Shown: positions 4,819 through 35,309 of the stretch, one piece after another
How positions within the stretch are numbered: the stretch's first letter is position 1
Layout: every line of letters starts with the position of its first letter
Origin: a virus
Taxonomy: Duplodnaviria; Heunggongvirae; Uroviricota; Caudoviricetes
Direction: 5' to 3' (one strand)
IMG/VR virus record: IMGVR_UViG_2740892107_000010
Location: 1-35,640 of that record
DNA length: 35,640 nucleotides
Notes under the pieces: model-generated
What the model saw: the letters and a program-made list of their open reading frames with translations, nothing else
Database searches by the model: none
Told to the model about the DNA's origin: nothing
Position numbers and translations under genes: made by a program

Positions 4819-4937
4819 GTAATCATCATGCACACACAAAAAAACCGCTTGCCATGCCGCAATCAGTCAGGTTACATTTCCGCTGCACCTCATAAAACGG
4901 GTGCCGGGATTTCCACCCCGCTGACAACTACAGCGCA

Positions 4938-4959
4938 CAACCGCGCCAGCGGTTTTTTT
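4938..4959 (+). terminator. Rho-independent terminator
   Basis: Stem aaccgc / gcggtt with loop gcca, followed by T7 (4952-4959), downstream of the 4267-4818 gene. Confidence 0.55.
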
Positions 4960-5138
4960 GTGCGTACTGTATCGCCACGTCTTTTTCGCACACGAATTAT
5001 GGTGGGGCGTACGGGGCCGACTTCGGTCGGGCCGGGTTCTGTAGTTGCCGGTTGTGGAAACCCTGTACGTCTCACCACCCCGAGTTTTCCACCTCTGGAT
5101 GGTGAGTTTTCAAAACTTGCAACTACAGAGGCCACACC

Positions 5139-5369
5139 ATGGCAAACCGCAAACAGCACCGCGCTATCGCGGAGCGTCGTCACATCCAGACTGAAATCAA
5201 CCGCAGACTTTTCCGCGCATCACGCGTCGCGCAAATCATGCACATCAATATGCTGCATGAGCGCAGCCACGCACTATCAAACATTTATTCCGCCTCTGTT
5301 TTCAGCTATCTGGCGGATGATCTGCACGAGCTTCAACAGCTCATCCAGCAGCAAAACAAACTCCATTAA
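5139..5369 (+). CDS. Hypothetical small protein
   Basis: 76-aa ORF with GAGG ribosome-binding site. Confidence 0.5.
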   Translation: MANRKQHRAIAERRHIQTEINRRLFRASRVAQIMHINMLHERSHALSNIYSASVFSYLADDLHELQQLIQQQNKLH

Positions 5370-5441
5370 TTCCTGTTCCGGGCCTTTCCTGCACCTTGCG
5401 GCGGGAGGCCTTCGCACATCTGTAACAAGAGGATTGCCGCA

Positions 5442-5807
5442 ATGATTCTCGCCGACGACTTTCTTGAATACCTGCTCAACACAGAACGTGATCTTGCCGC
5501 TCGCGTGCGTGATCGTTATGACATGTACCTGAAATCCCTGCCTGTACCGCAGCTCGCTGACGGAAAGATTGTTATTGATGGTCGCTACATGATTGACAGC
5601 CACGAGGGAAATTACAGGCTTTACCGCATTGAAGGTGGCACCCCGTCCGTTATTGGCATTTACCAGCGCCCATCCTCTGCAATCGTCGATGTGATTGCCG
5701 ACAGCATCCGCATCACACATCGCCATGCCGACACAGAAGACACCGTGCTGGAAATTCAGTGGCTGGCTACAGTCTGCCGCGACACCCTGAATGGCATGAC
5801 GAAGTAA
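5442..5807 (+). CDS. Hypothetical protein immediately upstream of A
   Basis: 121-aa ORF with AGAGGA ribosome-binding site. Confidence 0.55.
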   Translation: MILADDFLEYLLNTERDLAARVRDRYDMYLKSLPVPQLADGKIVIDGRYMIDSHEGNYRLYRIEGGTPSVIGIYQRPSSAIVDVIADSIRITHRHADTEDTVLEIQWLATVCRDTLNGMTK

Positions 5808-5813
5808 ATCACT

Positions 5814-8621
5814 ATGACGGCAGAGTACATCAGGGACTGGCAACAACCGCGCCACGCAGTGGGGCGTGAAGGAACGGGGATCCCCGCTCCTGAATCCGCG
5901 CTTTCCTCCTGGCTGGATGCCTACCGGGTAGAGAACGAGCGCCGCCAGGAAATAGCTGATGCGGCGTTCTCCGCCACGCCGCTGGGCAACCTGATTAATA
6001 AAAGCCTGGACGCACAGGAAAAACAGGACAAAACCATCACACTGGCAGGAGACGCCAGAAAGCAGGCACGCGGCGCGGTGGATGAAGCCATGGCCTCGCT
6101 GCGCCTGCTGCCGTCCTATCTGCGCGATCCGCTTATTCGCCACCTCTCCTTCCTGCGCAAAAAACAGGAAGCCGATCGCCGGAAAGGCAAAAAGAGCTGG
6201 CAGGCGGAACGCTATGCACGCGGAACCCTACGCAAAATATTCGAACGTCTGGATCGCACTGACGGACGCTGGCTGACACCGTGTTATTGCTCCCTTGCCG
6301 GACGCGAACGCCTGGACGATTTGCTTTACCTGCCGCAGCTCAACAAACACCAGATACAGACGCTGGCCACCATGACGGCGGCGATGTTCAGCAGCACTTT
6401 CGAAACACTCTGCGATGGCTTTGGTGCCAGAGATGGCGAGCTGACCATGGATGTAATGTTGAAGGCTTACCGGATGCTGGCTCGTATCGCATTATGCCTG
6501 CATATCATGCCGCCACATTACGAAGCCCTGAACAAGAGCGAACCGGATACGGAACTGCTGCCGGGCGCAATCCTTCGCCTGACCTGTGCGGAATGGTGGA
6601 AACGCAAACTGTGGCTTTTACGTTGCGAGTGGAGAGAAGAACAACTCCGCGCCGCCTGTCTGGTTTCCAGAAAAACATCACCCTATCTGAGCCAGGACGC
6701 GTTAAGCGAGTTTCGCGCACAGCGCGAGAAAACACGCGATTTCCTGAAAAGTTTCATGCTGGAAAACGAAGACGGGTTCACGATTGATCTCGAGACAGTG
6801 TATTACGCGGGAGTAAGTAACCCGGTTCACCGTAAGGCAGAAATGATGGCCACCATGAAGGGACTGGAACTTCTGGCCGAAGCCCGTGGCGACAAAGCGG
6901 TGTTTCTGACTGTCACCTGCCCGTCAAAATACCACGCTACAACAGAGAACGGTCATCCGAATCCCAAATGGAACGGGGCCACCATGCGCGACTCCAGCGA
7001 TTACCTGGTTAACACGTTTTTTGCGGCGGTCCGCAAGAAACTGAACCGCGACGGTCTGCGCTGGTATGGCATCCGCACGGTGGAGCCTCATCATGACGGC
7101 ACTGTGCACTGGCATATGATGGTCTTTGCTCATCCGGAAGAAATCGACAGCATCGTGGCCATCACCCGCGATATTGCCATTCAGGAAGACCGCCACGAAC
7201 TGGGCAATGATATTACTCCGCGCTTTAAGGCGGAGTACGTCGACGGCTCAAAAGGCACGCCAACCAGCTATATCGCGACCTACATCGGAAAGAACCTGGA
7301 CAGCCGCGCCGTGGATGGAATCGACCCGAAAACGGGCAAACCACGCGTTGACCACGAAACCGGAAAATCAATGGCCGAGAGCGTGGAGCGCGCCATCGGC
7401 TGGGCGCGCCTTCATCGGGTCCGCCAGTTCCAGTTCTTTGGCATCCCCTCCCGTCAGGTGTGGCGTGAACTGCGCCGCCTTGCCAGCCAGATGGCACGCA
7501 ACCCGGAAGGCCCGCAACGGCTGAAGGATGACGCAATGGATGCGGTACTCGCTGCCGCCGATGCCGGGTGTTTTGCCTCCTACATTGAAAAACAGGGCGG
7601 CGTACTTGTTCCACGTAAAGACTACCTGATTCGCACCGCCTACGACCTCGCAGATGAGCTGAACGATTACGGCGAGCAGAGTGTACAGATTTACGGGATC
7701 TGGTCGCCGCTCATCGGGGAGTCTTCCCGCGTGTGCACGCACCCGGATAACTGGAAGCTGGTAAGACGTAAACCGGAAGCGGAAGACAGCGCCCGCGAAA
7801 ATGGTTTTGACCTTCAGGGCGGCCCTGCCGCCCCTTGGACTCGTGGCAATAACTGTCCCCGTGTACAGGAAACGAGCAACAACGGAACAGAACAGCCGGA
7901 AGAACGGCCAGCACCGTGGCCGCAGCTTCCTGACGGCGTTGAAGTAAATGAATGGATGCGCTCACTGAAACGGCACGAACGCCGGGCGCTGATGCGTTCG
8001 CTTCGTGACAAACAGGCAAAAAACAGCAGCGATGAAATGCAGAACTGGACACAGAGCCGCAAACAGCCGCGACCTTTGCCTGATAACCACGAGTTACTCG
8101 CTAAAGAATGGCGGGAGTCTGCCGAATCTCTCGGCCTGCATATCGGTGAACAACAGATGCTGCACCTGTTACGGGGCGGCAGTCTGTACGTTGACGGCAG
8201 CATCATTGCACCGCAGGGATTTGAAATTGTACGCAAACCAGATACCCGACCGGACAGCCGAATCACGCAGCTCTGGCAGCGCCTGAGCCGTAATCACGGC
8301 GTAAGCAGCACGGAGATCCGCCATAACCCGGTCGCCAGCTATCTGGAACAGCTAGGGGCATCAGACCCCGAAGCCGCCGCACGCCTGGCATCCACACTTC
8401 AGCAGGACCAGAACACCATGAAGACACCCGTTACCGTGCTTTCTGACATGCTGCGCGCCATCCGTGACGCAGAGCACGCACAGAGAATCAGTGAAACCAC
8501 TGAACGCGCCCACCGCAAAGCAGACCTGCTGCGGGGTGGCCTGACCCGTGGGAACAAAAAACAGACAGAAACGGGATTCACAAATCCCGTAAATGAGCAA
8601 AAAAAGCGCCGCGAAATATGA
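5814..8621 (+). CDS. A: Rolling-circle replication initiator (P2 gpA family endonuclease)
   Basis: 935 aa; HUH-type motif VHWHMMVFA near residue 430; position after the early operon as in P2/186. Confidence 0.85.
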   Translation: MTAEYIRDWQQPRHAVGREGTGIPAPESALSSWLDAYRVENERRQEIADAAFSATPLGNLINKSLDAQEKQDKTITLAGDARKQARGAVDEAMASLRLLPSYLRDPLIRHLSFLRKKQEADRRKGKKSWQAERYARGTLRKIFERLDRTDGRWLTPCYCSLAGRERLDDLLYLPQLNKHQIQTLATMTAAMFSSTFETLCDGFGARDGELTMDVMLKAYRMLARIALCLHIMPPHYEALNKSEPDTELLPGAILRLTCAEWWKRKLWLLRCEWREEQLRAACLVSRKTSPYLSQDALSEFRAQREKTRDFLKSFMLENEDGFTIDLETVYYAGVSNPVHRKAEMMATMKGLELLAEARGDKAVFLTVTCPSKYHATTENGHPNPKWNGATMRDSSDYLVNTFFAAVRKKLNRDGLRWYGIRTVEPHHDGTVHWHMMVFAHPEEIDSIVAITRDIAIQEDRHELGNDITPRFKAEYVDGSKGTPTSYIATYIGKNLDSRAVDGIDPKTGKPRVDHETGKSMAESVERAIGWARLHRVRQFQFFGIPSRQVWRELRRLASQMARNPEGPQRLKDDAMDAVLAAADAGCFASYIEKQGGVLVPRKDYLIRTAYDLADELNDYGEQSVQIYGIWSPLIGESSRVCTHPDNWKLVRRKPEAEDSARENGFDLQGGPAAPWTRGNNCPRVQETSNNGTEQPEERPAPWPQLPDGVEVNEWMRSLKRHERRALMRSLRDKQAKNSSDEMQNWTQSRKQPRPLPDNHELLAKEWRESAESLGLHIGEQQMLHLLRGGSLYVDGSIIAPQGFEIVRKPDTRPDSRITQLWQRLSRNHGVSSTEIRHNPVASYLEQLGASDPEAAARLASTLQQDQNTMKTPVTVLSDMLRAIRDAEHAQRISETTERAHRKADLLRGGLTRGNKKQTETGFTNPVNEQKKRREI

Positions 8622-8661
8622 AGCGCGCACAAAACAGGCAAAAGCGGGATTTCAGAATCCC
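8573..8661. repeat. Two copies of a 16-bp palindrome gggatt-N4-aatccc, each followed by gtaa
   Basis: gggattcacaaatccc at 8573-8588 (inside the 3-prime end of A) and gggatttcagaatccc at 8646-8661 (just upstream of the parM-like start). Confidence 0.6.
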
Positions 8662-8697
8662 GTAACCGATTAATTAATCAATATAAGGAAAATCGAC

Positions 8698-9657
8698 ATG
8701 AAAATTTGTATCGACGACGGCTCCACCAACATCAAGCTGGCATGGACTGAGAACGGCGAACGCCGCAACGCCATCAGCCCGAACAGCTTCAAGTCGGAAT
8801 GGTCTGCGCCGTTCGGTGGCACGCATCCCGCGAACTACATGCTTGATGGCGTGCGCTATGGCTTTGATCCGGTCAGCGATCGCTTTGTCCAGACGACTGA
8901 CACGCAATACCAGTACAGCGATGTGAATGTAATCGCCATTCATCACGCGCTGGTCAAATCAGGCATCACACCACAGGAAGTGGATGTGGTTGTCACCCTG
9001 CCACTGAGTGAGTATTTCGACACAAACGCACAGCCGGACATGGCCAACATCAACCGCAAAAAAGCGAACGTCATGCGCCCGGTGGAGTACCAGAACGGCG
9101 AAGCATTCACTATCCGTAACGTACGGGTTATGCCTGAATCCATTCCGGCTGGCTTTAAAGCACTGGCTGACATGAGTCCGTTTGAATCCCTGCTGATTGT
9201 GGATTTAGGCGGAACCACGCTGGATGTGGCAAAGGTTCAGGGACAACTGGCAGGTATCAGCCAGGTGTTTTGCGATCCACACGTAGGCGTTTCCCTGATG
9301 GCCGATGCCGTACTGTCGGTGATGGCCACTAACGGTATGCGTACCAGTCACCACATCGCCAATACCATTATCGAACATCGCCATGATGAAGCCTGGCTGC
9401 GCCAGCACATCCACAATGACGCGCATTACGCCAGCCTGATGGCGGTTATTCGTGAAAAGGAAGAAACACTGAAACAACGCGTGATCCGCGCGCTGGCGGG
9501 TTTTTCGGGTTACGGGCGGGTGATGGTTGTCGGTGGCGGGGCGGAGATTGTGGCACCCGCTATCCGCGAAGCCTGCGGAGTTAATGCGACTTTCATCGCG
9601 GACGGGGTGCCACAGTTTGCTCTGGTTAATGGGCTGTACGCAATGGACAAGGAGTAA
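8698..9657 (+). CDS. parM: ParM/StbA-like actin-family ATPase
   Basis: N-terminus MKICIDDGSTNIKLAW...ISPNSFKSEW...YQYSDVNVIAIHHALVKSGI closely resembles plasmid R1 ParM as I recall it (MLVFIDDGSTNIKLQW...). Confidence 0.8.
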   Translation: MKICIDDGSTNIKLAWTENGERRNAISPNSFKSEWSAPFGGTHPANYMLDGVRYGFDPVSDRFVQTTDTQYQYSDVNVIAIHHALVKSGITPQEVDVVVTLPLSEYFDTNAQPDMANINRKKANVMRPVEYQNGEAFTIRNVRVMPESIPAGFKALADMSPFESLLIVDLGGTTLDVAKVQGQLAGISQVFCDPHVGVSLMADAVLSVMATNGMRTSHHIANTIIEHRHDEAWLRQHIHNDAHYASLMAVIREKEETLKQRVIRALAGFSGYGRVMVVGGGAEIVAPAIREACGVNATFIADGVPQFALVNGLYAMDKE

Positions 9658-9660
9658 ACC

Positions 9661-9973
9661 AATGACGACACCAACCAGACGAATAAGTTTCTATCTGAAG
9701 CCTGCCGCCGTCAAGAACGAAGGCGAAGCATGCGCCTGGCTGGACAGCCTTACACCAGAAGCCCGTAAAAACGGCCAACGCGTGGCTTTTCTGGCTGGTC
9801 TGGCGCTTCTGAAAATGAATCCGGCAGAGGCTTACCGACTGGCAGCATGGGCTGACGATGAGGCGTTATCAGTGACACAAACCAGGACAGAACGCCCCCT
9901 GTCACAGCCAGTACCAACCGCACAGATAACCAGTCAGATGGCCGGAAATATCAGGGCATTATTTCCTGAATAA
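9661..9973 (+). CDS. parR: ParR-like adaptor protein
   Basis: 104 aa directly after parM; RISFYLKP...LDSLTPEARK...AFLAGLALLKMNP...ALFPE resembles R1 ParR as I recall it; AGGAG ribosome-binding site. Confidence 0.6.
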
Positions 9974-10036
9974 CACAACGTCAGGGCGAGTTCGCCCTGA
10001 TCTCCATCTCAGAACATAAACAAGAAGAGCGACTTA

Positions 10037-10420
10037 ATGAGCAAAATCAACTATCAGGCATTACGTGAACGTTATTCACCTGCACCAGTACCAAAATGCC
10101 CTATTTGCGGCGAAGAAATGTCAATTCAGCGAATATCTGGAGCACTGGTTGTTTATGGCTGCTCCGGTTATGGTGATGATGGAGATTTCAAAATTGGTCG
10201 AACTCTTGCCGACGAACATTATGAAAAATCACGCGTAACAGTGTTGGATGTCGGGGATCCTGAAGTATTGGCGCTACTTGATTGGCTGGAAACCAAAGAC
10301 AACCGAATCGCTGAACTGGAAAAAATCGCCACTGACTATGCACTTAAATTCCAGAAAGCACAGGACGCATTAAAGTACGCCGCTTTGCTGCATAGCAGGA
10401 CAGTGCAGCTACAAGACTAA
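10037..10420 (+). CDS. Hypothetical protein with N-terminal CxxC zinc-ribbon-like motif
   Basis: 127 aa; CPICGEE ... YGCSGYG; helical C-terminal half. Confidence 0.55.
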   Translation: MSKINYQALRERYSPAPVPKCPICGEEMSIQRISGALVVYGCSGYGDDGDFKIGRTLADEHYEKSRVTVLDVGDPEVLALLDWLETKDNRIAELEKIATDYALKFQKAQDALKYAALLHSRTVQLQD

Positions 10421-10510
10421 CTTAAAGCGGAAGATTAATACATGGTGAGTCGGGGTAATTTGTTTTTATCCCGACAAATAAACAAAAAAGTGGACTATCT
10501 CTGTAGTATC

Positions 10511-11042
10511 TTATTCAGCATCGTCTCGTGCAGTCTGTGCATACGTCACAACAACGCCCAATGCATTAGTTTTCTTTTCAACATAGATAATATTGTCATA
10601 TTCATAGTTACCATACGGATAGCAAATAAGAATATTTTTATGCAGATCGGGATCATCAACAAACGCTCCGGAACAGCTTCTTGAACTACCGGATGTATAC
10701 TCATACGGTGCAACATATGATGATGTTACTCCTGGTAAAAAATAAGTCACCATCATAAGAGGGATAATCAGGAATATCCCTGTAAGAATGCAAGAGCCAG
10801 CATAAACCTTCAGGTATTCCGACAGTCCTTTCCAGCCACTTTGCTTCACTACCCCCCCTCTTCACCAGAAACAAGGAGAAGAAAAAGGACATACCCATAC
10901 TACACAAGATGTAATAATTGGATATACGCGAATTAAGATATGTAATCCTGTAGATATCTGCCCTCCACCAGTAAAAGAGGAAAATAATCCCTAGCACTGA
11001 AACAGTCATGCAAATCAAATAAGGATATGAATCTTTCTTCAT
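10511..11042 (-). CDS. AT-rich membrane protein gene, split into two overlapping frames at a C7/G7 tract
   Basis: ORF 10701-11042 (two hydrophobic segments) and ORF 10511-10849 (one hydrophobic segment) overlap in different frames; removing one base from the C7 run at 10852-10858 fuses them into about 175 aa. Confidence 0.5.
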
Positions 11043-11572: not shown

Positions 11573-12619
11573 TCAGGATGTGGGCTGAGTGTCCAGCAGT
11601 GCGTAAGGGTTAAAGCGGATCACCTCTTCGCCAAGCCAGTCATTGATATGCTTCATGGCCTCCATTACGGGCATCAGCTCGTTAATTGCGTAAACCCGCG
11701 CTGCCTTCTCCACATCACCAAACGCACTTTTTTCGCCCGGCATCGCCCCCATCAGTTGCGGCGGAACGCGGTGCGCAGCCAGCACATCATCACGGGATGC
11801 CGCCTTAACATTCATGAACTCATCTTTTGCGGTGATCTGCTGGAACGGCAAAATTTGCACCCCCTCTTTGCCCCCGTTGGGCGCGTGAATGAGCACGTTT
11901 TTAAACGCACCACCACCACGTGCACCCTGTAGCGTTTCCTTCAGGGAGTCCATGCTTTCGCGGTTTACCTGCGCTGCACCGATGTAGATGATGCACCCGG
12001 CGTGGGATCCGTTGTCGTAATACAGTTTTCTGAACATGTCCGCCGAATGAGACAGGCTGGCCGAGAGTAATGCGCCGAGATATTCCGGCATGCCGTAGAT
12101 TTCCTGGTTAATGTCAGGATTCATCAGGTGGCACACTTTGCCAGAGCGAAACTGAAACGCGTCCTTGCCATCCTGCACATACCACCATGATTCAAGATCG
12201 CTTCCGCGTCGCATGTATTTCGCCAGGGCGTGCCGTAATTTAAGCGGTTCGCCGAGCATATTGCTTCGAAGCTCAAGGAATGCGTTACCGAACACAAACC
12301 AGTCCAGCGCCAGCGCCGAGAAATCCTGCCGGGAAAGCAGCGGATGCGGAATATAGCAGCCGAGCAATACATTACGCTTAAAGTAAAGCGCAGACTGATG
12401 CCAGGACGTTTGCCGGGCAGCTCTTGCCAGACCGTACCAGTCCACCGGGGTTTCATACCACCGCCCGTTATCAGCACAGTACATATTGTCCAGCAGGTCA
12501 TGCCCGGTCAGGCGGTAAGGACCATCAAATGTGAATGCACTGAGCGACGATTCTTTCCTGAGCGCATCAGCGAGATCAATGCGTGAACTCATGCGCACTT
12601 TTTTATTTTTTCTGCTCAT
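11573..12619 (-). CDS. Q: Portal protein (P2 gpQ family)
   Basis: 348 aa, size and position match P2 Q; start overlaps the terminase stop (ATGA). Confidence 0.85.
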   Translation of the reverse strand: MSRKNKKVRMSSRIDLADALRKESSLSAFTFDGPYRLTGHDLLDNMYCADNGRWYETPVDWYGLARAARQTSWHQSALYFKRNVLLGCYIPHPLLSRQDFSALALDWFVFGNAFLELRSNMLGEPLKLRHALAKYMRRGSDLESWWYVQDGKDAFQFRSGKVCHLMNPDINQEIYGMPEYLGALLSASLSHSADMFRKLYYDNGSHAGCIIYIGAAQVNRESMDSLKETLQGARGGGAFKNVLIHAPNGGKEGVQILPFQQITAKDEFMNVKAASRDDVLAAHRVPPQLMGAMPGEKSAFGDVEKAARVYAINELMPVMEAMKHINDWLGEEVIRFNPYALLDTQPTS

Positions 12620-14370
12620 CAGAACTCCATAACCGTGAAACGCTCGTTTTCTCCTTCGCCGCCAATTGGTTCGTTAATGACAGCAAGCATGGTTGCCCAC
12701 GCAAGGTCGCCGTGGCTGATCCCCCTCGCGCGGTCCGTTTCGTAAGTGATAAAGCCACCCGGTGTTTTCACCTTACGCACGGCGTTAAAGGCCGCGACCA
12801 GCTCGCGTTCGGCGCGATCGTATTCCCACCGCCCGGCACGCATTATTTGCAGCATTTTCAGTACCAGCGACCGTTTTGATGACAGCGTGAAGGTGTACGG
12901 AATAGCAGCAGGGAAAAACCGTTTCACTATCTGATAAACAGCCTCCCCGTTCCCGCCCGTCACATCAATGCCGATGTGTTCCACGTTGTAGCGACACGTG
13001 AACTCTTCAATGACTCTGGCCTGTTCTTCAAACTCCAGCCCCTGAACGCGTCGCGTCTCCACCGTTCGAAAACGGCCACCAGGAACAGCCGGAGGAACCA
13101 CCACGGACACAGCGCCGCTGTCGCCGTTTCCACTGCTGCCGTTTGCGTCATAACCAATCCATACCGGACGATTCCCCATCGGGCGGGGAGCAAAAGGTTT
13201 CCAGTCTTTCCAGTCGTCGTATCCGTCAACACCGCAGCCAATCAGGATATTCAGGTTAAATGCCGATTCCCCTTCGCGGACAAACTCACACATATAGAGA
13301 TTGCGGAACTCGTCTTCGGTGTTTTCATCACGAATTTCGTCGATATCGGTGTGTTTCCAGCCGTGATTAACCACATCTTCCAGCGTGACAATTTGCCGCC
13401 ACGTCCGGTCAGGGCAGATAAGCCCGTTATGCAGCGTTTTCCAGTCCACAGAAAAACGCTGGCGTTTATGCGTGGCCTTTTTCTCGTTCCAGCGGTCGCC
13501 GTTCCAGTAGGCGTATGCCTCGTGCGTTTCGGTGGATGGCGTGGAGAAGTAGGTGCGCCGCAGTCCGCTGAGGGTTGCCATAGCGCCAGCCACCTTGCGC
13601 AGTTCAGCAAAGCGGCTGACCCAGAAAAATTCATCAAAATAAAAATTGCCAGTATAGGACTGTGCCGACGCAGCAGAAGTGCCGAGGAAATGCAGCTCTG
13701 CGCCGTTGGAGAGGATGATTTTATCACCCCCTTTCAGCTCCACATCAACTTCAGCCGCGGCCTTCTGAATAATGCTTTTAAACTGGAACGCCTGACGACG
13801 CGACGCAGACAAAAAAATCTGGTTACGCTGGTAAGGTTGCGCCACATCGTCACGCAGCGCCATCAACAGTGCTTCCTGTGCAAAATACCAGGTCGCCCCA
13901 ATCTGTCGGGATTTCAGGATCATCCTGTTACGTATCCCGGCTTCCCTGCAAAGGGTCAGGGCGTCAAACCAGCCCCGCTGATGCCACTCCAGCCTGCTGA
14001 TGATTTTTTCCCGCAGTGCGGCAATCTGTTCCGGCGTGAAATGATTTTTAAGTTTTTTCGCCCGGCTTTTCTTTCCTGTGGCCGTCGCATCCGGCTGGTC
14101 ATTATGCAGTTTTTTAAGCTGCCGGGTCAGCAGGTCTATTTCCTTGAAGTCACCACCTGTTTTATTCTGTTTTTCAGTAAGCTGGATGAGGCGCGCATCG
14201 ATGGACTGCGTGACACGCTGCACGGGTGGCGTTTCATCCCACTGATCGCGTTTTTTCCACGCATAAATCGTGTTCGGGTTTATTCCCATCAGACGTGATA
14301 TTTCTGCGGGCGGATAACCCTGCCAGTAAAGTTGTCGCGCACGCTGGCGCACAAAAGCGTCCTGAATCAT
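12619..14370 (-). CDS. P: Terminase large subunit (P2 gpP family)
   Basis: 583 aa; divergent from O across a late promoter region, as in P2. Confidence 0.9.
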   Translation of the reverse strand: MIQDAFVRQRARQLYWQGYPPAEISRLMGINPNTIYAWKKRDQWDETPPVQRVTQSIDARLIQLTEKQNKTGGDFKEIDLLTRQLKKLHNDQPDATATGKKSRAKKLKNHFTPEQIAALREKIISRLEWHQRGWFDALTLCREAGIRNRMILKSRQIGATWYFAQEALLMALRDDVAQPYQRNQIFLSASRRQAFQFKSIIQKAAAEVDVELKGGDKIILSNGAELHFLGTSAASAQSYTGNFYFDEFFWVSRFAELRKVAGAMATLSGLRRTYFSTPSTETHEAYAYWNGDRWNEKKATHKRQRFSVDWKTLHNGLICPDRTWRQIVTLEDVVNHGWKHTDIDEIRDENTEDEFRNLYMCEFVREGESAFNLNILIGCGVDGYDDWKDWKPFAPRPMGNRPVWIGYDANGSSGNGDSGAVSVVVPPAVPGGRFRTVETRRVQGLEFEEQARVIEEFTCRYNVEHIGIDVTGGNGEAVYQIVKRFFPAAIPYTFTLSSKRSLVLKMLQIMRAGRWEYDRAERELVAAFNAVRKVKTPGGFITYETDRARGISHGDLAWATMLAVINEPIGGEGENERFTVMEF

Positions 14371-32288: not shown

Positions 32289-32445
32289 AGCTTCAGCCCC
32301 TTGTATCCGTTAAATGATTCGGCAACAATCATCACCCACCACGCGCGTAATCTCACCCCTGCGCCGTTCTCCCGCCACGGCGACAACAAAAAGCAGTAAC
32401 CCCCTCCGCACGCACATGCGACCATGCTGCACAGGGAGGGAGCAG

Positions 32446-33555
32446 ATGACCGACACCACCATGCAATTGCTCAGTCAGAGCACAGACCCCGTAAAAATGC
32501 CGGATTTTGATATTCTCGCGGAGGGTAAAACGCTGTCCGGCGTGGCAGAGCGCCTGATGAGCCTGTCGCTGACCGACAACCGGGGATTTGAGGCAGACCA
32601 GCTCACCATCACGCTGGATGATGCGGATGGTCAGTTGCAGCTACCGCCACGGGGCGCGCGCCTGACGGTTCTCATTGGCTGGAAAGGCGAACCGCTGACA
32701 GAAAAAGGGTCTTACATTGTTGATGAAATCGCACACGAAGGACCGCCAGACAGGCTGACTGTTTCAGCCAGAAGCGCAGATTTTCGGGATGAATTTAACG
32801 TTAAACGTGAAGTGTCCTGGCATGATGTGACCGTTGAGCGCGTGGTATCCGCCATCGCTCATCGGTATGGTCTGAAACCGCAAATCAGCGAAATGCTGAT
32901 GGATATTGAAATCGACCACGCCGACCAGACCGAAGAAAGCGACATGTCCTTCCTTACGCGCATGGCGGAAATGCTGGGCGCAATCACTACGGTAAAAAGC
33001 GGTAATCTGTTATTCATCATGCCAGGTGGTGGCGTGAACGCACAGGGCCAGCCGTTGCCCTCGTTCGCCATTACACGCAGCAGCGGCGATCGCCATCAGT
33101 TCCGTATTGCTGACCGCGAGGCGTATACGGGGGTACGCGCCTACTGGCTTGATCTTAATTACGGGAAAAAGAAAAAAGTCAGCGTGAAACGCCGTAAACC
33201 GCCAAAACCCAAAAAGGAGAAAAGCAGCAGCCGTGAAGGTGATTATATGGAAGGCGCGGAAGGCAATGTGTTTGTGTTACGCAAGACTTATCAGAACGAG
33301 CAGGCAGCAAGACGCGCAGCGGCGGCAAAGTGGCAGCAACTACAACGCGGAGCCGCATCATTCTCCATCACGCTGGCGCGTGGACGTGCAGAACTCTATC
33401 CCGAAATGCATGGCACGGTGACAGGCTTCAAAAGTGACATCGACAATCAGGACTGGATTATTGCAAAAGCCGAGCACACCATTGATAACAGCGGCTTTAC
33501 CACGCAGCTTGAGCTTGAGGCAAAAATCCCGGAATGGATAGCAGAAACAGCGTGA
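32446..33555 (+). CDS. D: Tail protein D (P2 late control gene D family)
   Basis: About 369 aa from ATG 32446 with GGGAGGG ribosome-binding site; the longer upstream ORF start at 32314 looks like an artefact. Confidence 0.8.
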   Translation: MTDTTMQLLSQSTDPVKMPDFDILAEGKTLSGVAERLMSLSLTDNRGFEADQLTITLDDADGQLQLPPRGARLTVLIGWKGEPLTEKGSYIVDEIAHEGPPDRLTVSARSADFRDEFNVKREVSWHDVTVERVVSAIAHRYGLKPQISEMLMDIEIDHADQTEESDMSFLTRMAEMLGAITTVKSGNLLFIMPGGGVNAQGQPLPSFAITRSSGDRHQFRIADREAYTGVRAYWLDLNYGKKKKVSVKRRKPPKPKKEKSSSREGDYMEGAEGNVFVLRKTYQNEQAARRAAAAKWQQLQRGAASFSITLARGRAELYPEMHGTVTGFKSDIDNQDWIIAKAEHTIDNSGFTTQLELEAKIPEWIAETA

Positions 33556-33646: not shown

Positions 33647-34816
33647 CTAATATTGAGAAAGATAATCAGCGACTCCATCTGCAGGGTTTCGCCCACCAGT
33701 ATAAATTGTGCCTAATTCTTGAGGTGTAACATATGTTGTAGGCCAAATGGCCATATTTTTAAAATAGTTATCTATTTTTATTCTTTGAAGTTCTTTAAAG
33801 AGATAATCTTCTAAGTCATTTCTTTTTAGACAGTTAACATAATAAGCAGCCGCACTTGCTACTATATCTACAATTTGTAATTGAGGATACTCTTGTGATG
33901 AATGGAATGTCAAAGAACGAGCTTTAATTGGCAATTCAAATTTTCTTCGATCATAACCATATGCCTCCGTAATTTTTGATATATCCATAAATTTATCAAA
34001 AATATCTTTCTTCTCTGTAATAGCTTTGGAATCGTCATGCTTAATATAAAAACCATTAGGGTATAATTTACCCCATTCTACACAGTGTCTAAAGAGGCTT
34101 GGTATAGATGGATCTAATGTGCTTTTCTCAACACCTTCCAATATATCATCAATATCGCTTCTGGTAATACTAATTCTGTTTATTATATCTGTGAATATCT
34201 TATCACTTGAGCATATCTTTAACTCATCAATTACCCTGTAAAATTCATCAATTGACTCAGTCGATTGGCTTCTGATCATATTCATAAAACACTGATACAT
34301 TACCTCTGTTTTTTCCTCCCCACAGAAAGCAGGGAAACAGAAATAGTAAACATTAGACAGAGCTAGATTCTGTCCATTTATATAAAGATCTATTCCTCTA
34401 TTAGAGCACCACGTCTCGATCAAAATATCAACAATCTTTGCTGTTAGCATGTATTTTTTATCGACCAAGTATATTTTAACATTCTCTTCATTGACATATT
34501 TGCTTTCAAGAAGCCTAATGATGCCATCCTGACCAGATTTTCTACGTCTAAGAGTTTTAAAGTGGGCTTCTGTTGGAGACTTGCTTCCGGTTAGTTCTAA
34601 TGCCTTAAGCGCATCCTGTTTACTAATACTACTTGAACTTAAGGTAAAAACAGGTTGCAATGGATCGAGTAAATTTCCGCCAGTATTACCTGATTCATCA
34701 AAAAATATATCAGGCTTTATATACAACATTTTATTTATCTTTGCCGCTAAGTTTCTTTTTTTCTCATTTTCTCGCTTAATTTTATTATCTCGCCTACGTT
34801 GACTATTCTTTCCCAT
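33647..34816 (-). CDS. AT-rich 389-aa cargo protein of unknown function (DUF3800-like N-terminal motif, tentative)
   Basis: Low GC; GAGG ribosome-binding site 5 nt upstream of ATG 34816; N-terminal IFFDESGNTG motif that I recall as typical of the DUF3800 family; inserted between D and ogr on the opposite strand. Confidence 0.7.
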   Translation of the reverse strand: MGKNSQRRRDNKIKRENEKKRNLAAKINKMLYIKPDIFFDESGNTGGNLLDPLQPVFTLSSSSISKQDALKALELTGSKSPTEAHFKTLRRRKSGQDGIIRLLESKYVNEENVKIYLVDKKYMLTAKIVDILIETWCSNRGIDLYINGQNLALSNVYYFCFPAFCGEEKTEVMYQCFMNMIRSQSTESIDEFYRVIDELKICSSDKIFTDIINRISITRSDIDDILEGVEKSTLDPSIPSLFRHCVEWGKLYPNGFYIKHDDSKAITEKKDIFDKFMDISKITEAYGYDRRKFELPIKARSLTFHSSQEYPQLQIVDIVASAAAYYVNCLKRNDLEDYLFKELQRIKIDNYFKNMAIWPTTYVTPQELGTIYTGGRNPADGVADYLSQY

Positions 34817-35048: not shown

Positions 35049-35309
35049 ATGTTCCGTTGTCCGCTTTGTGGCGCATCTGCCCGTATCCGCACAAGTCGTC
35101 CGGAAAATGATTCAAACACCGTGCGGCAAAAGTATTACCAGTGTAACAACCTGGAATGCGGCGTATGCTTCTCAACACTGGAAGCCTTCCATAAATTCAC
35201 ATCAAAACACGCCTCCGCCGTTCACTCTTCAGAAGGTATCCCGTGGCATGAGCTGCCAGCTTCACACAGGGGAAACAATCAGATGAGTTTGCCTTTACCT
35301 CAGAACTAA
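35049..35309 (+). CDS. ogr: Ogr/Delta-family zinc-finger late transcription activator
   Basis: 86 aa; MFRCPLCG...QCNNLEC gives a C-x2-C-x22-C-x4-C finger like P2 Ogr; GGGAGG ribosome-binding site. Confidence 0.85.
   Translation: MFRCPLCGASARIRTSRPENDSNTVRQKYYQCNNLECGVCFSTLEAFHKFTSKHASAVHSSEGIPWHELPASHRGNNQMSLPLPQN

Follow-up and report, generated by a model that had tools for sequence, protein, structure and literature searches.

Why should a phage that integrates into the chromosome of its host carry what looks like the segregation apparatus of a low-copy plasmid? The question is posed by two genes, parM and parR, at positions 8698–9973 of the virus record IMGVR_UViG_2740892107_000010, which was analysed as one stretch of 35,640 nt (the window). 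Nearly all of the window is a single P2-like prophage, and the host element of the two genes is an integrated P88-like (Xuanwuvirus, Peduoviridae) prophage of Escherichia coli, near-identical to P88 over the module and possessing P2-type A, portal, terminase, gpD and ogr genes. A sequence-only reading that preceded this analysis had placed an actin-like segregation ATPase and its adaptor directly after the replication gene A, and both genes are indeed there, as Pfam, Protein Data Bank (PDB) and plasmid R100 alignments agree. That reading had also called a partition module in such a prophage unexpected, which it is rather less than it seemed. The presence of ParMR in P88-like prophages is already known: the pair is annotated as ParM and partition protein in the P88 RefSeq entry and by PGAP in more than 1000 genomes (around 1300 complete E. 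coli genomes), PHROGs holds 'partition protein' families for both genes, and a putative partition system has been noted at the gpA-gpQ locus of about a quarter of P2-like phages (Rousset et al. 2022). To this we add the recognition of the pair as backbone and not cargo, its retention across distant P2-like lineages, a three-part layout of ParR with a conserved tip, a specific candidate centromere, and a chromosomal distribution that counts against plasmid lysogeny. As read from the sequence, the two genes, with the repeats that precede them as candidate centromere, would form a complete type II (ParMRC-type) segregation module that is a backbone part of P88-like and related P2-like phages. By analogy with systems in two other integrated elements, we put at roughly 0.6 the probability that this module acts, by positioning or partition, on the phage's own extrachromosomal replicating circles after infection or induction.

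The product of parM is related to the plasmid proteins over its full length. It matches the Pfam StbA_N and ParM C-terminal domains (3.4e-82 and 1.3e-68, respectively), R1 ParM in the PDB (1MWM/1MWK; E 1.6e-92, residues 2–316) and R100 ParM, to which it is 46.5% identical over 318 aa (E 1.5e-109). Its nucleotide-binding motifs are the same, letter for letter, as those of R100 ParM, namely DDGSTNIK (phosphate-1), MPESIPAG (containing E148), DLGGTTLD (phosphate-2, containing D170) and GGGAE (adenosine), and these four actin-fold motifs are likewise present in four distant phage relatives. The roles of E148 and D170 in ATPase function are known from work on R1 ParM. The gene is under strong purifying selection, with ratios of nonsynonymous to synonymous substitution rates (dN/dS) against the window of 0.02–0.16, and it is intact in 80 of 80 IMG/VR contigs; the contig scan by ParM alignment, from which the counts of intact genes are taken, kept matches at 99–100% identity only.

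The relationship of ParR to its plasmid counterparts is more limited. The gene begins with an ATG at 9662, 4 nt past the parM stop codon and behind an AAGGAG ribosome-binding site, and its product matches Pfam Plasmid_stab_B (PF10784) at 2.3e-24. Identity to R100 ParR is 35% over the N-terminal 55 aa, and comparison of a phage ParR profile with R100 ParR by hhalign gave a probability of 97.6% (E 3.8e-12). A PDB sequence search with ParR gave no match at E up to 1, and none of the tblastn matches of the phage protein with E below 1e-3 is a true plasmid ParR. The AlphaFold prediction for the monomer, from an alignment of 11 sequences, is of low confidence (mean pLDDT 56.6); the protein presumably exists as an obligate dimer. 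The sequence-only reading had described both proteins as strongly similar to those of R1, a description that stands for ParM and has to be softened for ParR, where similarity is moderate, extending over the N-terminal domain and a brief motif at the C-terminus. Alignment to R1-type ParM and ParR, which it had put forward as the check on its assignment, gives significant similarity, and the ATPase motifs are intact. On sequence grounds, the two proteins are members of the R1-type ParM/ParR family, type II (ParMRC, parA-type).

Comparison of phage ParR variants reveals a protein of three parts. Residues 1–63, which include the RRISFYLKP strand region, are nearly invariant among the variants aligned. 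They are followed by a hypervariable linker of residues ~65–90 (window 9854–9931), which differs even where the accompanying ParM is 99% identical and for which at least a dozen variants occur in 80 IMG/VR loci. Two main allele classes can be distinguished, only ~52% identical overall, in both of which the DNA-binding domain and the C-terminal tip are fixed. The tip, QMAGNIRALFPE in the window, conforms to the consensus NI(R/Q)A(L/F)FPE, and in the alignment its invariant N96 and L100 fall within 'KKNAMKLIN', the very end of R100 ParR. In R1 ParR, the extreme C-terminus is the part that binds ParM, and the phage tip is thus a putative ParM-capturing peptide. The gene as a whole has dN/dS values against the window of 0.09–0.24 and is intact in 77 of 78 IMG/VR loci.

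A partition system of this type also requires a site on the DNA, and a candidate for it lies directly upstream of parM, where two direct repeats of 38 nt, 79% identical and 73 bp apart, occupy the 3' end of gene A and the gap that follows it. Each contains an 18-bp palindrome of the form CGGGATT-N4-AATCCCG, the second ending 36 bp before the parM start codon. The palindrome occurs twice in the 35.6-kb window, both times within the repeats, against an expectation of 0.11 matches, and two occurrences were reached in none of 100 shuffles. Among P88-like phages the palindromes differ in their loops but retain their arms. As RNA hairpins or terminators, the palindromes were flagged on the minus strand only, and an arm change found in two loci (L002 and L014) is uncompensated; a role in protein binding would appear to fit them better. 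Paired repeats, of other sequence, are present in four distant relatives of the module too, no more than ~150 bp ahead of parM: direct 26-mers 72 bp apart in L008, inverted 14- and 20-mers in L009 and L010, and two GGG-N10-CCC palindromes, seen by eye, in L012. Such divergent paired repeats are what a ParR binding site co-evolving with its protein would be predicted to look like. Motifs of the form CAnAA with an 11-bp phasing, resembling the R1 iterons, were also noticed in the repeats of the window; they were seen by eye only and are not relied on here.

The resemblance to parMRC of R1 and R100 therefore extends to the gene order parM-parR and the presence of repeats upstream of parM, as well as to full-length ParM, the homologous N-terminal domain of ParR and the alignable ParR tips. 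There are also differences. R1 and R100 are low-copy plasmids with theta replication, whereas the phage module belongs to an integrating element and lies downstream of a rolling-circle initiator, probably in its operon. Plasmid ParR has 116 aa and phage ParR 103, with unrelated linkers, and the plasmid parC consists of two sets of five direct 11-bp iterons flanking the promoter, in contrast to the two 38-nt palindromic units of the phage candidate.

The position of the pair suggests when it would be expressed. A rightward early region follows the integrase and repressor-like genes of the prophage and ends in gene A, after which come parM and parR. The parM gene shares the strand of A and follows it after 76 bp, and neither a consensus sigma-70 promoter (strict scan of 8300–10500) nor a plus-strand terminator-like site (terminator scan between A and parM) was found. 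The pair is therefore probably the last part of the early replication operon, which would make it active upon infection or induction but not in the lysogen. A GC-rich hairpin immediately after parR may be where the early transcript ends or, in the other direction, may serve as a terminator for leftward transcripts of the genes beyond.

Two systems in other integrated elements offer a guide to what such a module might do. In the CGP3 prophage of Corynebacterium glutamicum, an actin-like ATPase (AlpC) and a DNA-binding adaptor (AlpA) act with the site alpS. The alpAC operon is induced early and AlpA binds repeats upstream of it, linking circles of phage DNA to filaments on which the efficient replication of this DNA depends (PMC4446434, PMC5539076); loss of AlpAC halves the copy number of CGP3 DNA (PMC4446434). 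SrpMRC of the SXT/R391 elements is a ParMRC-like module in a normally integrated element that is expressed only upon activation of the element, in dependence on the SetCD activator, and stabilises its excised form, which replicates by rolling circle (PMC4489591). The early wiring proposed above for parMR matches both analogues, alpAC being induced early and srpMR being dependent on SetCD. Neither is a close copy of the phage module. CGP3 is a cryptic prophage of a Gram-positive host, its adaptor gene precedes the ATPase gene, and AlpC is a distant member of the actin-like proteins, outside the R1-type ParMs; SXT/R391 is conjugative, SrpM is only distantly related to ParM, SrpR is without a recognisable domain, and the operon is shared with int, versus the replication initiator as proposed for the phage module.

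In P2-type phages, A-dependent rolling-circle replication yields monomeric circles, which are the substrate for packaging. We envisage that parM and parR would be transcribed together with gene A, as the last genes of the early operon, and that ParR dimers would bind the paired repeats at 8555–8665. The conserved C-terminal tip of ParR would, to judge from its alignment with the R1 ParR C-terminus, capture filaments of ATP-bound ParM, and the growing filaments would push ParR-bound circles apart, dispersing the monomeric products of A-dependent replication. Dispersed circles might be better replicated, undergo better late transcription and be better packaged, and if the cell were to divide before integration or lysis, one copy could pass to each daughter. 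Were this correct, an R1-type actin segregation machine would for the first time have been shown to work for an integrating Gram-negative phage, extending the AlpAC and SrpMRC precedents, and the result would bear on the efficiency of lysogenisation and the stability of the prophage.

The episomal phase, intracellular DNA positioning and repurposed cargo function that the sequence-only reading had offered as explanations proved to be the right candidates to weigh. The 1.5-kb module is 94–97% identical to 14 phage records, all of them P88-like (Xuanwuvirus) and including the inducible P88 itself and Citrobacter phage phiSM. In P88 (NC_026014), P884B11, 520873 and phiSM, the same module stands in the same position (DNA 94–97%, ParM 99%) with its genes annotated as 'plasmid segregation protein ParM' and 'partition protein', and in essentials these modules are alike, variation between isolates lying in the cargo downstream of parR and in the ParR linker alleles. 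The module is very common, being present within P88-like prophages in 1308 of 5426 complete E. coli genomes (~24%), a fraction that agrees with that of Rousset et al., and 1454 of the 1456 copies in these genomes are chromosomal.

That last figure counts against regarding P88-like phages as facultative plasmid prophages, in which ParMRC, perhaps together with a hok gene, would permit persistence as a low-copy episome instead of, or before, integration. The idea was raised by Rousset et al. (2022) and has attractions, not least that the module is of plasmid type and intact. The prophage also has a hok/gef gene, directly after ogr at its right end, and so carries homologues of both classical stability loci of R1, parMR corresponding to R1 parA and hok to R1 parB; no Sok RNA was reported by Rfam at the gathering threshold. 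Outside the P88 group, a close ParM (47.8% identity) occurs in a single record of the cultured-phage collection, that of the P1-like plasmid prophage D6, whose gene is of the StbA type. D6 is maintained as a plasmid, without chromosomal integration; its ParM is no closer to that of the window than is R1 ParM. Finally, NZ_CP148288.1 (L002), recorded as a circular 'plasmid' of 34,461 bp in E. coli Z1323PEC0009, comprises an entire P88-like phage genome, with int adjoining the ogr/hok end, as in an excised circle, and hok beside ogr. However, this is the only phage-sized circle found among 72,556 PLSDB plasmids, it could equally be a real episome or an assembly of DNA from induced phage, and strain Z1323HEC0067 has this phage (99.9% identical) integrated in its chromosome. 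By the yardstick of extrachromosomal upkeep, a plasmid replicon and no reliance on integration, the element is not a phage-plasmid; in the examples examined, an integrase and a rolling-circle initiator of the P2 type are always present and a plasmid replicon never. Stable plasmid carriage by means of the module is therefore unlikely, because almost all copies are chromosomal and an integrase is present, and we consider the facultative plasmid prophage as a whole improbable. If it were nonetheless to exist, P88-like phages would have two lifestyles, the second being persistence over generations as low-copy episomes partitioned by ParMRC and guarded against loss by hok, and a carrier state would have gone unrecognised in prophages found in about a quarter of E. 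coli genomes.

The surroundings of the pair speak to whether it is cargo directed at other elements, through incompatibility with or exclusion of plasmids or phages, or through some other benefit to the host. The pair occupies the interval between A and cos or the portal gene of an integrase-bearing P2-like prophage, as the sequence-only reading had stated. This gpA-gpQ interval is an anti-phage hotspot according to Rousset et al., and the phiSM paper lists the gene as a 'fitness' factor; the likeness of the ParR tip to that of R1 ParR also makes cross-talk conceivable. Against this, neither ParM nor ParR has a PADLOC match, and loci with identical ParM and ParR have at least four different sets of genes downstream (DUF4760; Ead/Ea22 with a 176-aa open reading frame (ORF); a helix-turn-helix/Gp49 pair; none). 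Because the pair is constant beside A while the genes that follow it differ, ParMR is a fixed edge of the gpA-gpQ hotspot, and backbone as opposed to exchangeable cargo. The sequence-only reading had compared the position with that of the tin and old genes of P2; the pair is not interchangeable cargo of that type, displaying neither the variable presence nor the similarity to defence proteins of tin/old-type cargo. The repeats directly upstream of parM are, moreover, candidate cis-acting sites of the pair's own, which is what one would look for in a system whose target is the DNA that encodes it.

Retention over long evolutionary distances points the same way. Relatives of ParM with 54–63% identity occupy the same slot, immediately downstream of A and ahead of the portal gene, in P2-like prophages of Plesiomonas, Serratia, Enterobacter and Hafnia, in which A is only 31–56% and the portal 30–46% identical; a search of genome contigs with the single ParM had given near-identical loci only, and these distant relatives were reached by protein search with contig look-ups. 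Three ParMs examined at 49–52% identity are in plasmid or conjugative-element contexts. In a neighbour-joining tree the phage ParMs group together. The idea of a single phage ParM clade is held loosely, because the tree has no bootstrap and the L009 and L010 ParMs are about equally close to R100 ParM and to that of the window. Conservation across such distant P2-like phages makes it very likely that ParMR is useful to the phage, and the cargo explanation, set against this retention across deeply diverged lineages, is an improbable one. A contig of 226 kb labelled Vagococcus sp. WN89Y (L005; NZ_JBQPOM010000071.1) encodes a ParM with 98% identity to that of the E. coli phage and is probably a contamination or a mislabelled assembly.

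It is very improbable that the pair is a functionless hitch-hiker, or serves regulation only, with ParR a local promoter repressor and ParM dispensable: relics are frequent in prophages, and a two-unit site is more operator-like than the R1 centromere, but the dN/dS of parM signifies strong purifying selection, its ATPase motifs are all identical to those of R1, it is intact in every one of the 80 viral contigs, and the ParM-binding type of ParR tip is conserved while the linker varies freely.

Several considerations nevertheless weigh against a role of the module in positioning or partitioning phage circles. In the literature searched, we found no study of its expression, binding or phenotype in any P2-like phage. 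Most other P2-like phages, P2 and 186 among them, have no ParMR and yet replicate well, and any benefit in lytic growth must therefore be conditional. The effect of the analogous system in CGP3 is only twofold (PMC4446434). The candidate parC, with two units as compared with the ten 11-bp iterons of R1 parC, may be a mere operator, or unrelated to the pair. A weak internal promoter is possible, in which case the module could be expressed in lysogens. Since P88 and phiSM are inducible and genetically tractable, the role is directly testable.

The features on which the argument draws, together with the genes that surround them, are collected in Table 1. The cargo that follows parR is a short low-GC stretch; portal and terminase come next, and then the structural genes. 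In a near-identical RefSeq locus, the two overlapping low-GC ORFs of this cargo are annotated as one frameshifted gene, and no PADLOC match was obtained for the cargo ORFs in 10037–11042. As regards the prophage ends, no direct repeat of at least 12 nt that could represent attL/attR is common to both ends of the window, and a P2 cos sequence has no match in the window at up to three mismatches.

Table 1. Position of the partition module and of neighbouring features in the 35,640-nt window.
Feature	Position	Strand	Basis or remark
Integrase	596-1720	minus	Int_N + Phage_integrase
Helix-turn-helix repressor-like gene	1620-1928	minus	left end of prophage
Replication initiator gene A, P2-type	5814-8621	+	Phage_GPA 8e-130; 935 aa
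Candidate parC repeat 1, 38 nt	8555-8592	+	inside gene A 3' end; palindrome CGGGATTCACAAATCCCG at 8572-8589
Candidate parC repeat 2, 38 nt	8628-8665	+	palindrome CGGGATTTCAGAATCCCG at 8645-8662
parM, actin-like segregation ATPase, 319 aa	8698-9657	+	Pfam, PDB, R100 alignment, motifs
parR, ribbon-helix-helix-type adaptor, 103 aa	9662-9973	+	PF10784; hhalign to R100 ParR
GC-rich hairpin TCAGGGCGAGTTCGCCCTGA	9981-10000		just after parR; flagged terminator-like on minus strand only
Ead/Ea22-like ORF, cargo after parR	10037-10420		Pfam 1.1e-28
Two overlapping low-GC ORFs, cargo	10511-10849 and 10701-11042	minus	
Portal gene Q	11573-12619	minus	downstream of parMR and cargo
Portal and terminase block	11573-14370	minus	followed by structural genes
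gpD	32314-33555		right part of prophage
ogr	35049-35309		near right edge
Hok/Gef-family toxin ORF, 46 aa	35500-35640	+	Pfam HOK_GEF 4.1e-07, 29.9 bits vs cutoff 22

The gene A product itself, at 935 aa, is slightly shorter than the 940–946 aa of close relatives. Its alignment to the Plesiomonas and Hafnia homologues ends near residue 690 and the Pfam match covers residues 179–498 only, so that the C-terminal ~245 aa are without an assigned domain; it is this stretch whose coding sequence overlaps the first candidate parC repeat. Elsewhere in the early region, Rfam places two RNAs on the plus strand, the Hfq-binding RNA isrK at 4885–4959 (63.6 bits) and a C4 antisense RNA at 4995–5082 (80.5 bits), both overlapping the 5' part of an ORF at 4828–5445 that has a weak Phage_ASH match. 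This arrangement looks like an antisense immunity element of the P1/P4 type within a P2-like phage. At the other end of the prophage, an island of ~33% GC between gpD and ogr encodes a DUF3800 protein of 389 aa (33647–34816, minus strand; Pfam 3.5e-10), which is likely a moron or an insertion of the defence type.

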